From: Trueperaceae bacterium
GTDB lineage: Bacteria > Deinococcota > Deinococci > Deinococcales > Trueperaceae
Assembly (NCBI GenBank): GCA_003567075.1
Contig: PXAU01000126.1
Coordinates: 1 to 40,464 of the forward strand
DNA length: 40,464 bases
Reading direction: 5' to 3'
Part shown: positions 18,235-22,146 of the stretch, one piece after another
Layout of the letters: each line of letters opens with the position of its first letter
How positions within the stretch are numbered: the first letter of the stretch is position 1
The notes under the pieces: generated by a model
Seen by the model: only the letters and a program-made list of their open reading frames with translations
Told to the model about the DNA's origin: nothing
The model's database searches: none
Position numbers and translations under genes: made by a program

Positions 18235-19011
18235 TCAAGGAGCGCTGTCGGAAGCGTTCTGCGGCTCGTCCTGCGCCGCTGCGTCCTCGCCCGACTCGGG
18301 CTCCGGCTCGGTCTCGGGCTCCGGCTCGGTCTCGGGCTCCGGCTCGGTGGTGTCGTCCGGTGCGTCGTCGCCGACGGCGTCCGCGCTCGCCTCGCTGCCG
18401 ATGGGCGCGAAGCGGTAGTGCTCTCGCAGGACGTCGAGATCTCCGTCCCCGACGACCCCGTCGCCGTCGAGATCGGCCGCTAGGTTGATGCCCTGGCGAC
18501 CCCACGCCGACGCCAGTTCCAGCAGATCGTCGAAGCCGACGTTCCCGTCGCCGGTGACGTCGCCGGGCAGCCCGACGCCGGGCGCCAGCGCGGCGGCGTC
18601 GTCCGGGCCCGGACGACGAGGCTCGTCCGCCTCCAGGCGCGGGTCGAGCACACCGACCCCGGGGGTGCCGCCCAGCGCGATGCCTATGGCGATCACGAGC
18701 GCGTCGTCGAGCTGCTCGCCGGCGTCCGCGCGGACCACCAGCTCGAAGTCGACCCCGGGTGGGCCAGCCGTGATGACCAGGCTGATGGCGTCCGGTCCAA
18801 GCAGCGCGGCATCGCCGTAGCGGACGAGCACGGTGCGCTCGACGGCGTCGACGTCCGCGCCGGCGGCACGCCAGGCGTCGACGGCGGCGTCGACGCGAGC
18901 ACCAAGGTCGGCGGGTCCAGCCTCGTCATCGACGCGAACCTCCCACGCCGACGCCGAGCCGAGCAGCAGAAGCGTGGCGATGGCCGTGCGCCAGCGGCGC
19001 CGTACGCTCAT
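18235..19011 (-). CDS. Secreted protein with dockerin-like duplicated Ca-binding repeat and acidic Glu/Pro/Thr tail
   Basis: Signal peptide MSVRRRWRTAIATLLLLGSASA|WE. Two F-hand-like loops, GDVTGDGNVGFDDLLELASAW and ADLDGDGVVGDGDLDVLREHY. Tail TEPEPETEPEPETEPEPE. ATG 19011 overlaps the upstream stop (ATGA). Confidence 0.65.
   Translation of the reverse strand: MSVRRRWRTAIATLLLLGSASAWEVRVDDEAGPADLGARVDAAVDAWRAAGADVDAVERTVLVRYGDAALLGPDAISLVITAGPPGVDFELVVRADAGEQLDDALVIAIGIALGGTPGVGVLDPRLEADEPRRPGPDDAAALAPGVGLPGDVTGDGNVGFDDLLELASAWGRQGINLAADLDGDGVVGDGDLDVLREHYRFAPIGSEASADAVGDDAPDDTTEPEPETEPEPETEPEPESGEDAAAQDEPQNASDSAP
18295..18348. repeat. Perfect 18-bp tandem repeat x3 (ctcgggctccggctcggt)
   Basis: Copies at 18295..18312, 18313..18330 and 18331..18348 are identical. 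They encode the (TEPEPE)n tail on the minus strand. Confidence 0.95.
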
Positions 19012-19580
19012 GGCGTCCCCCGCAGCTCGCGCAGCAGGGTGCGCAGCGCCGGCAACCAGACGATCTCGGGATCGCCATCTCGGGCCAGCTGAACGCGGCC
19101 CGTGGCGTCGATGGCCAGCGCCTGGTCGTCGTCGTCGCGCCACACGCCGTTCGCTTCGCGCCAGAGCCCTTGCGTCACGCCCACCAGGGGCGAGGCGGCG
19201 GTGCTGTCGGCGCCGTAGCTCGCCACCAGCACGCGATCGCCCACGGCGAACACGGGGAAGCCCGCGACCTGCCGCGGCGCCGTGCCGGTGGCGCTGCCGC
19301 CCAGGAAGGCCAGGTCCACGTCGAAAGGTCCCGTCTCCGTCACCGTGCTGTCATACAGCACCCACTCGTCGACGGCGATGGACACGACCGTCCACGGGTC
19401 GTCGTCGCGACGTTCGCTGGACACACTGGTGACGCGGCCGACGAACACGTCGACGGCACGCTCGAGCCGCTCCTCGAAACGCAATGCCTGGAAGGCGGTG
19501 GCGTGGCCAACCCCGATCGCTGCGCAGAGCAGCAGCAGCGCCGCGAACGAGGCCAGCTGGGCCCGCGCTATCGTGCTCAT
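19008..19580 (-). CDS. Secreted or membrane-anchored hypothetical protein, 190 aa
   Basis: N-terminal hydrophobic segment LASFAALLLLCAAIGVGHA; no recognised domain. ATGA overlaps at both ends (19577..19580 and 19008..19011). Confidence 0.6.
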   Translation of the reverse strand: MSTIARAQLASFAALLLLCAAIGVGHATAFQALRFEERLERAVDVFVGRVTSVSSERRDDDPWTVVSIAVDEWVLYDSTVTETGPFDVDLAFLGGSATGTAPRQVAGFPVFAVGDRVLVASYGADSTAASPLVGVTQGLWREANGVWRDDDDQALAIDATGRVQLARDGDPEIVWLPALRTLLRELRGTP

Positions 19581-20500: not shown

Positions 20501-22146
20501 GCTGGTGCCTCCGCCGGCGACCACCAGGCGTAGCCGTGGCCCTCCAGCGCAACCGGGATGGCGTCTGCCGTGGCCTCGGTGCCACGTGGGGCGTCCTGGG
20601 ACAGGCGGCCGCCGAAGCCCAGCCGGAGGCGTCGCCCGGCGAGCGCCGGCACCGCCAGCTCGAGCCGCCGCGGCTCCGCGGCGAGGTTGTGCACGGCCAC
20701 CACGGCGTCGTCCTCGCTGGTCGAGAGGAACACCGCCAACGCCGGATCCGGGCTCGGCAGCATCGCGAAGCTTCCGCCGCCAAGGGCGGGGTGCCGCTTC
20801 CTGGTGGCGATCAGCGTCCGGATCCAATGGAGCAGCGAGCCCGGATCGCGCTCGGCCGCGGCCACGTTCACGCGCTGCGGCGCGGTGGCGCCGCGCAACA
20901 ACGGTGCGTAGGTGGTCGGGTTCTCGCTGAAGCCGGCGCCAGGACCGTCGTTCCACTGCATCGGTGTGCGCACCCCGTTCCGGTCGAACAGCGTCAGGTC
21001 GTCGCCCATGGCTATCTCGTCACCGTAGTACAGGATCGGCGTGCCTGGCAACGTCATCAGCAACGAGTGCAGCAGCTCGATGCGAGGTCGCTCGAAGTCG
21101 CACAGGGGGGCGAGGCGCCGGCGGATGCCGACGTTGAGCCGCATCACCGGCTCGGGCGCGTAGGCCGCGTACATGAAGGCGCGTTCCTCCTCGGTGACCA
21201 TCTCGAGCGTCAACTCGTCGTGGTTGCGCAGGAACACCACCCATTGGCACGAGGCCGGGATGGCGGGCGTGCGCTCGAGGATCCAGCGGATGGGCGCGGC
21301 GTCACCTTGCGCCAGGGCCTTCCACAATCGCGGCATCACCGGGAAGTGGAACAGCAGTGGCATCTCGTCGAAGCCGTCGCCGAAGTACGGCAGCGTGTCC
21401 TCGGGCCACTGGTTCACCTCGCCGAGCAGGAAGGCGCCGGGCGTGATGCTCTCGACGTGGGCTCGCAAGACCTTGAGGAAGGCGTGCGTCTCCGGAAGGT
21501 TCTCGCAGTTCGTCCCCTCGCGCTGGTACAGGTAGGGGATGGCGTCGAGGCGGAACCCGTCGACGCCGCACTCCAGCCAGAAGCGGATGACGTCCAGCAT
21601 GGTGGAACGCACGTCGGGGTGGTCGTAGTTGAGGTCGGGCTGGTGATGGAAGAAGCGGTGCCAGTAGTACTGACCTCGCACCTCGTCCCAGGTCCAGTTG
21701 GAGGTCTCGCTGTCGGTGAAGATGACGCGGGCCTCGCTGTAGCGTTCGGGGTCGTCGCTCCACACGTACCAGTCGGCCTTGCCGTCGGCGCGTCGGCGCG
21801 AGGCCTGGAACCACGGATGGTCGCTCGAGGTGTGGTTCATGACCAGATCGGTGATGACCTTGAGCCCGCGCGCGTGCGCCGCATCGATCAGGTCGCGCAG
21901 GTCGTCGAGGGTGCCGTAGTCAGGGTGGATGTCGCAGTAGTCGGTCACGTCGTAGCCGTCGTCACGTAAGGGTGAGGGTGACAGCGGCAGCAGCCACAGC
22001 ACGTCGACGCCGAGGTCGCGCACGTAGTCGAGGCGCTCGATCACGCCGCGCAGGTCACCGTGACCGTCGCCGTCCGCGTCGCGGAACGCGCGCACGTACA
22101 GCTCGTACAGGACCGCCTGCTTCCACCAGGTTGGTTGCGTCGCCAT
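20497..22146 (-). CDS. treS: Trehalose synthase (maltose alpha-D-glucosyltransferase), GH13
   Basis: MATQPTWWKQAVLYELYVRAFRDADGDGHGDLRG...DLVMNHTSSDHPWF...GFRLDAIPYL...LGEVNQ...FLRNHDELTLE...GTPILYYGDEIGM-like: all four GH13 regions with TreS-type context. 549 aa, GGAGG SD. Confidence 0.9.
   Translation of the reverse strand: MATQPTWWKQAVLYELYVRAFRDADGDGHGDLRGVIERLDYVRDLGVDVLWLLPLSPSPLRDDGYDVTDYCDIHPDYGTLDDLRDLIDAAHARGLKVITDLVMNHTSSDHPWFQASRRRADGKADWYVWSDDPERYSEARVIFTDSETSNWTWDEVRGQYYWHRFFHHQPDLNYDHPDVRSTMLDVIRFWLECGVDGFRLDAIPYLYQREGTNCENLPETHAFLKVLRAHVESITPGAFLLGEVNQWPEDTLPYFGDGFDEMPLLFHFPVMPRLWKALAQGDAAPIRWILERTPAIPASCQWVVFLRNHDELTLEMVTEEERAFMYAAYAPEPVMRLNVGIRRRLAPLCDFERPRIELLHSLLMTLPGTPILYYGDEIAMGDDLTLFDRNGVRTPMQWNDGPGAGFSENPTTYAPLLRGATAPQRVNVAAAERDPGSLLHWIRTLIATRKRHPALGGGSFAMLPSPDPALAVFLSTSEDDAVVAVHNLAAEPRRLELAVPALAGRRLRLGFGGRLSQDAPRGTEATADAIPVALEGHGYAWWSPAEAPA

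Follow-up and report, generated by a model that had tools for sequence, protein, structure and literature searches.

Why a cytoplasmic trehalose synthase gene should be translationally chained to three exported proteins, and what those proteins would form together, is the question raised by a locus in a Trueperaceae bacterium. The window, i.e. the whole stretch of 40,464 nt analysed here, contains the following features:

20497..22146, minus strand: gene 1, treS, maltose alpha-D-glucosyltransferase, 549 aa, without signal peptide (TIGR02456 and Pfam Alpha-amylase)
19577..20500, minus strand: gene 2, predicted lipoprotein, 307 aa, with signal peptide/lipobox, He_PIG Ig domain, cohesin-like domain and acidic tail
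19008..19580, minus strand: gene 3, exported protein, 190 aa, TIMP/NTR-like fold according to a homologue model, member of a large family
18235..19011, minus strand: gene 4, exported protein, 258 aa, with signal peptide (residues 1–22), degenerate matrixin-like domain, dockerin and acidic tail
22147..22264, no strand assigned: intergenic region separating treS from the giant GH13-like gene, probably a divergent promoter
22265..25747, plus strand: giant atypical GH13-like protein, about 1160 aa (weak GH13 matches)

The initial annotation described four minus-strand genes chained by ATGA overlaps, and all three junctions are seen when the minus strand is read: the ATGA at 20500..20497 is both the treS stop and the gene 2 start, while those at 19580..19577 and 19011..19008 form the gene 2–gene 3 and gene 3–gene 4 junctions. 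In the frames of genes 1–4, third-position GC is 0.84–0.91 compared to 0.46–0.56 at the second position. In related loci with both flanking genes, the treS–gene 2, gene 2–gene 3, and gene 3–gene 4 junctions are all 4-nt overlaps (ATGA, GTGA, or TTGA) according to a script that takes the start codon nearest the stop and is therefore biased toward finding overlaps. Independent gene calls reproduce the 4-nt overlaps with one exception, locus L003, where gene 3 was called as starting 5 nt downstream of the stop of gene 2. As RTGA overlaps are kept in all such loci despite protein identities down to 35–45%, the chaining is not due to chance. Gene 1 was also correctly named as a cytoplasmic trehalose synthase, as it lacks an export signal, scores 739 bits against the curated TreS model TIGR02456 (cut-off 678, passing the equivalog threshold), and matches Pfam Alpha-amylase at E 1.4e-91.

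The gene 2 product can be divided into four parts, all encoded on the minus strand:

20396..20500: type II signal peptide with lipobox LAAC and predicted lipidated Cys35 (supported by Cys35 conservation)
20120..20356: He_PIG Ig-like domain, residues 49–127 (Pfam PF05345)
19748..20110: cohesin-like beta-sandwich, residues 131–251 (profile and AF2/Foldseek)
19580..19726: acidic Pro/Asp/Glu tail, residues 259–307, predicted to be disordered (composition and pLDDT)

The lipobox noticed at first inspection holds up, with Cys35 invariant in 75 homologues, and the Ig-like segment is a He_PIG domain that exceeds its Pfam cut-off (E 3.4e-10) and is matched by 75/75 family members. For the proposed cohesin, the family profile matches the Clostridium perfringens GH33/NanJ cohesin (PDB 2vo8_A) at E 9.3e-6 over 81 residues, and the same structure is the best Foldseek PDB match of the AF2 model (E 1e-6, TM 0.70, rmsd 3.1), in which this domain has a pLDDT of 97–98; the GH84 cohesin-like structure 2jh2 is matched with a TM of 0.71. 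However, a Pfam Cohesin search of the gene 2 family gave no match, even at E ≤ 1. The acidic tails reported for genes 2 and 4 are also present (37–41% Asp+Glu, 16% Pro, no Lys/Arg), that of gene 2 having 41% Asp+Glu and a pLDDT of 55–59. Taken together, profiles and model identify gene 2 as encoding a predicted lipoprotein in which an Ig-like spacer carries a cohesin-type module.

The gene 4 product was initially read as a signal peptide plus a dockerin, which overlooked a degenerate matrixin-like domain of about 120 residues between them. Its parts, again on the minus strand, are:

18592..18945: metzincin-fold pseudoprotease domain, residues 23–140 (homologue P0184 model and MMP-2 profile match)
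18646..18702: former zinc motif, residues 104–122, now ALVIAIGIALGGTPGVGVL
18415..18567: type I dockerin-like module, residues 149–199 (profiles and Ca loops)
18238..18399: acidic tail, residues 205–258, with an exact 18-nt tandem repeat in three copies (EPEPET)

The dockerin assignment stands with regard to the duplicated F-hand, with Ca loops DVTGDGNVGFDD (residues 151–162) and DLDGDGVVGDGD (residues 180–191), in which D151, D155, D162, D180, and D191 are invariant in the family. The window protein itself stays below the Pfam Dockerin_1 cut-off (16.8 bits, GA 22.9), but 35/42 family members match this model (best E 1.2e-6), and the family profile matches the solved dockerins 2y3n_B (1.6e-9) and CelS 1daq (4.8e-6). 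It also matches the C. perfringens NagH dockerin 2jnk/2ozn (1.9e-3), which pairs with the 2vo8-type cohesin family. The two modules may still not be mutual partners, with the dockerin being simply Ca-stabilised or having another partner and gene 2 encoding an independent, co-transcribed Ig-like lipoprotein. The missing Pfam Cohesin match would agree with this, as would the dockerin-like repeats in the relatives P0262 and L044, which have no adjoining cohesin lipoprotein. Both modules, however, match one solved system (cohesins 2VO8/2JH2 and dockerin 2JNK/2OZN), and the genes are chained by 4-nt overlaps at all loci, including the contigs of 40% GC and 57% GC in which the gene 2–3–4 triad also occurs; we therefore consider independent modules rather unlikely. 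The pairing that we favour resembles C. perfringens in that cohesin and dockerin each occur singly and outside any cellulosome. In contrast to C. perfringens, where these modules are on glycoside hydrolases, here the cohesin follows a He_PIG domain in a lipoprotein, and the dockerin is attached to a dead metalloprotease domain; furthermore, that host belongs to the Firmicutes and this one to the Deinococcota, and here the partners are translationally coupled neighbours whose pairing is predicted from sequence and model.

Gene 3 was noted as exported and otherwise unrecognised. The export signal is present (residues 1–27, Thr28 being the predicted mature N-terminus), and searches of gene 3 against Pfam and PDB sequences gave no match, but the protein belongs to a large family of 3248 representative proteins at E ≤ 1e-3. 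Among the best 150 representatives, 20/150 are fusions with a gene 4 type protein. Where fused, the gene 3 type domain forms the N-terminal part; in other relatives it is encoded directly ahead of the metzincin-type gene, overlapping it by 4 nt. The fold assignment of genes 3 and 4 was made through one such fused homologue, P0184 (about 36% identical), rather than the window proteins, and its model has a pLDDT of 88 and a pTM of 0.82, which suggests that the two domains would be packed in a fixed arrangement. Using Foldseek, we found that the model matches both halves of the vertebrate TIMP–MMP complexes (1UEA, 2E2D, 2J0T, 3MA2). Apart from protease folds, the best 50 matches include only TIMP-1, TIMP-2, and NTR domains (PCOLCE NTR 1UAP, C5 C345C, and meteorin NTR), at a modest E of 1e-3. 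On the protease side, it matches MMP-11, MMP-12, MMP-9, viral MMPs, and snapalysin (4hx3_E), the last giving the highest TM-score for the metzincin-like domain (0.74, rmsd 3.2); the profile of the gene 4 domain matches the MMP-2 catalytic domain over its whole length (E 4.4e-5). The gene 3 family also shares with TIMPs a conserved N-terminal residue that would be exposed by the predicted signal cleavage: in 86/136 representatives, a constant 15 residues separate the [A]|T N-terminus from the first strand of the barrel. However, a profile–profile comparison gave no match to TIMP N-domains (probability 0.09), and TIMPs depend on disulfides, whereas the mature gene 3 protein has zero cysteines and hence none of the disulfides that define TIMP/NTR proteins. 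On the best reading of the model, gene 3 would encode a TIMP/NTR-shaped (OB fold) partner of the gene 4 metzincin-like domain. The arrangement differs from TIMP–MMP complexes in that many bacteria have both parts on one polypeptide, and in that the window protease domain lacks a metal site.

Could genes 3 and 4 nevertheless be an active protease/inhibitor or zymogen pair, with gene 2 only positioning the enzyme? The metzincin and TIMP-like folds of the P0184 model would fit, as would the predicted N-terminal Thr, whose constant spacing to the barrel parallels that of Cys1 in TIMPs (TIMP-1 sequence). Relatives with an intact HExxHxxGxxH and Met-turn, paired with or fused to the same N-terminal domain, also exist: some metzincins fused to or overlapping gene 3 family members by 4 nt keep this motif, the gene 3 type domain precedes metzincins with intact HExxH in P0262, P0274, and P0289, and in L044 there is a 4-nt overlap between a gene 3 homologue and the gene for a protein scoring above the Pfam Peptidase_M10 threshold (33.3 bits, cut-off 24). 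Neither P0262 nor L044, both active-looking, has a cohesin lipoprotein beside it. The zinc motif forms a graded series, from HELGHVLGLAH through HELGvLxGLPEGGxGVM and RELG..GLPDG to IAIGIALGGTPGVGVL. The fused Trueperaceae forms, with HELGxLxGLPE, resemble the motif of snapalysin (Streptomyces caespitosus, M7; 1KUH, 4HX3). The snapalysin-type motif HExxHxxGxxD has an acidic third ligand. Even these fused forms lack the second His, and in window gene 4 the motif has decayed from HELGHxLGLAH to IAIGIALGGTP, with the first His, catalytic Glu, second His, third ligand, and Met-turn Met replaced by Ile, Ala, Ile, Pro, and Leu. As the degenerate motif is fixed throughout the window's clade, the decay is not a sequencing error. 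The model and the conserved replacements show a predicted matrixin/snapalysin fold with all catalytic and zinc-binding residues lost, which makes an active pair highly improbable. In addition, snapalysin has neither the dockerin nor the TIMP-like partner seen here.

Among bacterial systems, the Listeria monocytogenes Mtz–Tim pair is similar in arrangement, as it consists of a secreted metzincin and a TIMP-like lipoprotein with no promoter between their genes (Boichis et al. 2021, PMC8235301), and the gene 3 family is likewise paired with or fused to metzincin domains. Listeria Mtz is an active protease that cuts its TIMP-like lipoprotein partner, with the protease gene lying ahead of tim (PMC8235301). 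In the window, by contrast, the gene order is reversed, the TIMP-like protein is not a lipoprotein, and the metzincin domain, to which a dockerin is attached, has lost its catalytic residues; the cohesin is on a separate lipoprotein. In the potempin–KLIKK system of Tannerella forsythia, small exported partners are encoded directly beside their cognate secreted peptidases (PMC9890683), which recalls both the exported partner next to a peptidase-type gene and the lipoprotein tethering on the envelope. The potempins are, however, themselves envelope-tethered lipoprotein inhibitors of active peptidases (PMC9890683), and no cohesin or dockerin modules occur there.

The distribution of treS bears on whether it belongs to this unit. 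It is present in 19/19 loci of the window's clade with the upstream flank recovered (the window counted), and its overlap with gene 2 is kept in all of them, with TreS identity down to 61%. The emphasis first placed on treS does not survive wider comparison, as the gene is the first of the chain in this clade only and is absent from all more distant Trueperaceae loci with the upstream flank recovered; it occurs only at glnA identities to the window of at least 81% and is absent at 72–79%. In the treS-less loci, gene 2 is directly divergent from the giant GH13-like gene according to gene calls. In all loci of sufficient length, gene 2 is followed by gene 3 with an RTGA overlap, and genes 2–4 are kept together; the co-conservation holds for this triad and does not extend to treS outside the window's clade. 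In loci outside the window's clade with the upstream flank recovered, genes 3 and 4 are a single gene; the split form accompanies treS throughout the clade, and is also found in two contigs of unplaced lineage. The ancestral unit, on the best reading of these sequences, would be a cohesin lipoprotein gene followed by a fused TIMP-like/metzincin-like/dockerin gene, divergent from the giant gene, with treS most readily seen as a late, lineage-specific addition at the 5′ end. A TreS equivalog chained to exported proteins is thus confined to one clade here, and we are not aware of any published example in which treS opens such a chain.

The divergent giant GH13-like ORF that had been pointed out is present, with 1200 codons and weak GH13 similarity (Pfam Alpha-amylase E 3e-4, below the cut-off; NCBIfam MalA_Halo 47 bits; PDB alpha-amylase 4gkl E 1e-4). 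Its homologues align only from about residue 31–56 of the long ORF, and in L003 the protein begins at the equivalent of Val41; no sigma-70 consensus was found in the treS/giant intergenic region of this 72% GC DNA. The giant gene adjoins the unit divergently in all Trueperaceae loci reaching that far, which, with the 19/19 conserved overlaps, could mean that treS is integrated with a surface complex handling trehalose or alpha-glucan together with the giant enzyme. However, the whole neighbourhood is syntenic (glnA, ruvC, giant gene, unit, pterin-4a dehydratase, and a 630–720 aa protein), so the adjacency carries little weight. The distant loci keep gene 2 and gene 3/4 with no treS before the giant gene, TreS lacks an export signal, and no carbohydrate-active, glycosidase, or carbohydrate-binding domain was found in genes 2–4; the surface alpha-glucan/trehalose link suggested earlier is therefore unsupported beyond adjacency, and we regard it as distinctly unlikely. 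Since all loci with long flanks have the same wider synteny, the co-conservation of gene 2 with genes 3–4 in Trueperaceae also partly reflects phylogenetic inertia.

In summary, we think it fairly likely that genes 2–4 encode an envelope complex, restricted to Trueperaceae-like bacteria, that is Ca-dependent, membrane-tethered, non-catalytic, and MMP-like/TIMP-like, with treS inserted 5′ of it in one clade. The three exported proteins probably form one complex, for which we infer the binding steps as follows. After Sec export, the gene 2 protein would be lipidated on Cys35 and kept on a membrane, its cohesin would bind the gene 4 dockerin in a Ca-dependent manner, and the dead protease domain would hold the gene 3 product in the manner of the fused orthologues, in a TIMP-on-MMP geometry. 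The outcome would be a tethered, non-catalytic binding or scaffold module with two polyanionic tails. As the RTGA overlaps are expected to couple translation, in the window's clade this complex would be made along with cytoplasmic TreS. In the weakest step of our proposal, the complex may belong to an osmotic or desiccation response.

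The four consecutive minus-strand genes that the initial annotation had described as a translational chain are indeed joined by ATGA stop/start overlaps at all three junctions, and their third-position GC is strong (0.84–0.91) in a window of 72% GC. The chain is laid out as follows:

20497..22146, minus strand: gene 1, treS
20500..20497, minus strand: ATGA overlap of genes 1 and 2
19577..20500, minus strand: gene 2, cohesin-like lipoprotein
19580..19577, minus strand: ATGA overlap of genes 2 and 3
19008..19580, minus strand: gene 3, TIMP/NTR-shaped exported protein
19011..19008, minus strand: ATGA overlap of genes 3 and 4
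18235..19011, minus strand: gene 4, metzincin-like domain and dockerin

Gene 1 scores 739.3 bits against NCBIfam TIGR02456 (TreS), above the curated cut-off of 678.35, and has no export signal, confirming its earlier identification as a trehalose synthase. Among related loci, the treS–gene 2, gene 2–gene 3 and gene 3–gene 4 junctions are 4-nt ATGA, GTGA or TTGA overlaps wherever both flanking genes were found. Independent gene calls match these overlaps except in L003, where one call places the gene 3 start 5 nt past the gene 2 stop. A consensus scan of the 72% GC window DNA returned neither promoters nor terminators, and is uninformative on internal promoters. An inverted repeat with perfect 9-bp arms (GCGGTGGCC-15 nt-GGCCACCGC, 18187–18219), absent from the list produced by the scan, lies 16 nt past the stop of gene 4, where two genes converge, and may be a terminator hairpin lacking a T-run.

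The product of gene 2 carries the lipobox LAAC, which fits the pattern [LVI][ASTVI][GAS]C and whose Cys35 is invariant across 75 sequences. The Ig-like segment quoted in the initial annotation is a He_PIG domain (PF05345; 40.7 bits against a gathering score of 24, E 3.4e-10), matched by 75/75 family members. In an AF2 model built from the alignment of 75 sequences, pLDDT is 97–98 at residues 50–250 and both ends are disordered. Cohesins are nine-stranded beta-sandwiches of jelly-roll topology; residues 131–251 of the model match this fold, the first Foldseek match in the PDB being 2VO8 (E 1e-6, TM 0.70, rmsd 3.1, 129 columns), whose record reads 'Cohesin module from Clostridium perfringens family 33 glycoside hydrolase'; the cohesin-like module 2JH2 matches at TM 0.71. 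The family profile also aligns with 2vo8_A (E 9.3e-6, 81 aligned residues), relating the domain to a cohesin defined by experiment. The Pfam Cohesin model PF00963 gives no match to any of the 75 sequences, even at E ≤ 1. The proposed cohesin was thus upheld by profile and fold, and not by the Pfam model. Given the 2vo8_A and Foldseek matches and the lack of a PF00963 match, we file residues 131–251 as cohesin-like, resembling the non-cellulosomal type of C. perfringens, rather than as a PF00963 member. A generic Ig-like domain was also considered and rejected, the top sequence and structure matches being specifically cohesins.

The dockerin-like module, of type I, lies in gene 4, which has a predicted signal-peptide site at ASA|W. 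At residues 149–199 two 12-residue Ca loops (DVTGDGNVGFDD and DLDGDGVVGDGD) fit the F-hand pattern, in which a helix comes after a loop whose positions 1, 3, 5 and 12 are acidic; position 3 of loop 1 is Thr, however, and both loops have Gly at position 9. Across the family D151, D155, D162, D180 and D191 are invariant, and D182 and D184 nearly so. Window gene 4 scores 16.8 bits against Pfam Dockerin_1 (PF00404), below the 22.9 cut-off; the model matches 35 of the 42 family members (E ≤ 0.1, best 1.2e-6), and the homologues in L042 (29 bits) and P0178 (35.5 bits) pass its gathering score. Solved dockerins are recovered by the family profile (2y3n_B, 1.6e-9; CelS, 4.8e-6; C. perfringens NagH 2jnk/2ozn, 1.9e-3), in agreement with the duplicated F-hand dockerin originally proposed. 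The acidic tails reported for genes 2 and 4 are likewise present, with 37–41% Asp+Glu and no basic residue. They contain repeats, 15-nt and 12-nt units (DEPSD) at 19614–19683 in gene 2 and an exact 18-nt tandem repeat in three copies (EPEPET) at 18295–18348 in gene 4; tail lengths vary widely among homologues, and the tails seem to have evolved through expansion of such repeats.

The cohesin/dockerin interpretation was largely right and incomplete; the N-terminal 120 residues of gene 4 had drawn no comment. We modelled P0184, a ∼36% identical homologue and natural gene 3/gene 4 fusion from Trueperaceae (locus L033), on 114 sequences including window genes 3 and 4. The model (pLDDT 88.4, pTM 0.82) suggests a defined packing of the domains, because pTM is high despite a 70-residue disordered linker. 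Foldseek against the PDB returned two classes of match only, MMP/snapalysin and TIMP/NTR. The first class (MMP-11 at E 1.7e-4, MMP-12, MMP-9, MMP-1 and snapalysin; TM 0.51–0.74, the highest being snapalysin 4hx3_E) assigns a metzincin fold to the region corresponding to gene 4 residues 23–140, and viral MMPs top the matches in BFVD. At the sequence level the link required a trimmed domain profile, as the whole-protein profile gave dockerins only among PDB sequences. The trimmed profile matches the MMP-2 catalytic domain (E 4.4e-5, 112/130 positions), as well as myroilysin, MMP-11, MMP-1 and serralysins.

The zinc-binding signature HExxHxxGxx[HD] and the Met-turn are absent from window gene 4, which has IAIGIALGGTP...GVL instead, and [VI]A[ILM]GIALGG[TS]PGVG[VI]L is found throughout the clade of the window. 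The fused proteins have HELG(V/I/L)LxGLPEGGxGVM, and an intermediate clade has RELG..GLPDG. Distant relatives retain the intact signature, HELGHVLGLAH in P0262 and HELGHTLGLAH with 'DDINGVNAIYG' in L044, plus the Met; the L044 protein passes Pfam Peptidase_M10 with 33.3 bits against a cut-off of 24. At L044 983–2352, a gene 3 homologue is followed through a 4-nt overlap by this exported Peptidase_M10 protein, which contains HELGHTLGLAH, a Met-turn and dockerin-like repeats. Judged by its sequence, this locus is a candidate for an active TIMP-like/matrixin pair of bacterial origin. P0262 (507 aa; L037 8001–9524) combines a gene 3 type domain, a cysteine-rich metzincin domain with the intact HELGHVLGLAH and two dockerin-like repeats. 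It is encoded among genes for zinc transport (ZnuA, Zip) and for M16 and LysM/M23 peptidases, and this neighbourhood has no cohesin lipoprotein.

The second class of matches concerns gene 3, which gave nothing significant in Pfam, NCBIfam or family-profile PDB sequence searches, its lone match being a chance-level SSB. The P0184 model matches the PCOLCE NTR domain 1uap (E 8.8e-4, TM 0.60) and TIMP-1 in complex with MMP-3 (1uea_B, 1.2e-3), followed by TIMP-2, C5 C345C and meteorin NTR. In this homologue the gene 3 part is therefore an OB-type barrel of the NTR/TIMP N-domain kind, and no other OB family occurs among its top 50 Foldseek matches. The gene 3 family profile retrieved 3248 proteins at E ≤ 1e-3 from 1.84 billion representatives. 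Among the top 150, 20 are fusions in the order gene 3 domain, acidic linker, gene 4 type domain and dockerin, and in 3 others the domain precedes HExxH metallopeptidase domains.

The likeness to TIMPs extends to the predicted N-terminus. A small residue followed by Thr stands where the signal peptide ends in 122/136 family representatives, and in 86 of those 122 this Thr lies exactly 15 residues ahead of the acidic residue at the start of the first long strand, the same spacing as that from Cys1 to Asp16 in TIMP-1. The data that touch on a hypothetical inhibitory insertion of the free N-terminus into a metzincin active site are the conserved predicted Thr, its 15-residue spacing and the pTM of the fused model. 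The TIMP disulfide framework (Cys1–Cys70 and Cys3–Cys99 in TIMP-1) is absent, the lone Cys of gene 3 being in the signal peptide; hhalign of 68 family members against the N-domains of TIMP-1 to TIMP-4 gave a probability of 0.09, and the Pfam TIMP and NTR models do not match gene 3. With no Cys in the mature protein and a null hhalign result, the likeness to TIMP, as seen in the model, is one of fold and layout and not demonstrable homology.

To trace the history of the arrangement, we gathered 44 related loci, most of which hold the unit of genes 2–4 or part of it. Homologues of all three exported proteins are without names, and the few of named origin come from Trueperaceae MAGs (Deinococcota); a profile search of genome contigs with a narrower gene 2 alignment recovered four Trueperaceae MAGs only. 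Judging from record names only, the loci would come from soda-lake and saline sediments. All loci with long flanks have the same gene order: glnA, (ruvC), the giant GH13-like gene in opposite orientation, the unit, pterin-4a dehydratase and a protein of 630–720 aa. In the clade of the window (gene 2 identity ≥46%, glnA identity ≥81%), treS separates gene 2 from the giant gene in 19/19 loci whose flank was recovered, the window included, and genes 3 and 4 are separate. No distant locus (glnA 72–79%) with a recovered upstream flank contains treS. An ancestral or necessary link of treS to the other three genes is thus not supported, and the simplest history is one treS gain on the branch leading to the clade of the window.

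In the distant loci with both parts on the contig, genes 3 and 4 form a single ORF of 420–530 aa (L003, L023, L024, L029, L033–L036 and L039–L040), with the exception of L001. In that Trueperaceae MAG locus (8849–10341) the two genes occupy different reading frames, and the tail of gene 3 resembles an out-of-frame acidic linker; it is probably a frameshifted fusion, since its nearest relatives, L023 and L029, hold one fused ORF. The split forms occur also in L041 and L042, which may or may not belong to the clade of the window, so there may have been one split or several. An assembly artefact was discarded as the origin of the split, because the 4-nt overlap and a gene 4 signal peptide of its own recur in every locus of the clade that reaches the junction, as well as in L041 and L042. 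These two contigs, of 40% and 57% GC, also hold the whole three-gene unit, in line with the co-conservation of genes 2–4 that the initial annotation proposed to look for. Their presence in such contigs indicates, from sequence comparison, that genes 2, 3 and 4 belong together beyond simple synteny, and that treS does not. L041 is a marine metagenome contig with the He_PIG/cohesin, gene 3 and gene 4 triad at 91–2491; its gene 2 is broken into ORFs at 91–564 and 593–835 by a frameshift or an assembly error.

The conserved neighbours have features of their own. The giant GH13-like ORF (22145–25747, plus strand) has its probable start near 22265 (GTG, 'VPVAFRLPW'), since alignments with homologues begin no earlier than residue 31–56. 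The protein has 1160–1240 aa in the nearer clades and only 916–928 aa in L033, L035 and L040, carries the basic motif GDAKRRR three times at its C-terminus, and resembles alpha-amylase, TreY and TreZ only weakly. As listed, the ruvC ORF (25692–26228, minus strand, GTG start at 26228) converges on the giant gene, which ends at 25747, with a 3′ overlap of ∼56 nt. A 717-aa protein (15698–17851, plus strand) that has no Pfam, NCBIfam or PDB match flanks the unit on the side away from the giant gene; it is conserved, at 37–99% identity, wherever a Trueperaceae locus extends that far.

Non-cellulosomal cohesins and dockerins were reportedly surveyed over three domains of life by Peer et al. in 2009. 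The systems closest to the one described here are the non-cellulosomal cohesin–dockerin pairs of C. perfringens, for genes 2 and 4, together with vertebrate TIMP–MMP complexes, the Listeria Mtz–Tim pair of a metzincin and a TIMP-like lipoprotein, and the potempin–KLIKK operons (PMC9890683). The authors of the Mtz–Tim study could find no previous report of TIMP-like proteins in bacteria (PMC8235301). Three features did not turn up in the sources on these systems or in a limited literature search: a cohesin lipoprotein combined with a dockerin-tagged pseudo-metzincin and a TIMP-like partner, a gene 3 family of this size, and a chain led by treS.

We propose that the gene 2 lipoprotein would be tethered through Cys35, that its cohesin would capture the gene 4 dockerin through putative Ca-dependent, high-affinity binding, and that the dead metzincin domain of gene 4 would hold gene 3 in the manner of the fused orthologues. 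The complex would be non-catalytic, because window gene 4 is without the first and second His, the Glu, the third ligand and the Met. In the clade of the window, translation coupled to TreS would tie production of the complex to trehalose metabolism, which hints at a possible stress context. A broader reading, which we advance tentatively and think somewhat unlikely to hold as a whole, is that the gene 3 family (>3000 representative clusters, no Pfam model) serves matrixin-like metzincins in prokaryotes as a partner or pro-domain of TIMP/NTR type, acting via the N-terminal Thr that signal-peptide cleavage exposes, and that in Trueperaceae this protease–inhibitor module was made into a catalytically dead scaffold, held at the membrane by a dedicated cohesin–dockerin pair and, in one clade, chained with treS translation.

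For annotation, the treS link is best taken as a secondary operon insertion and not as evidence for a trehalose function. The unit would give Deinococcota a one-to-one dedicated cohesin–dockerin pair that tethers something other than a carbohydrate-active enzyme. It also points to a large unnamed bacterial family of TIMP-like fold whose members have many times been joined to MMP-like domains, by fusion or by translational coupling, where bacterial TIMP-like partners have so far been hinted at only by the Listeria Mtz–Tim pair. The active-looking, half-degenerate and fully dead versions in related genomes form a natural series for following a protease–inhibitor pair on its way to a pseudoenzyme scaffold, and the same series would offer a test of whether TIMP-style capping exists in bacteria.
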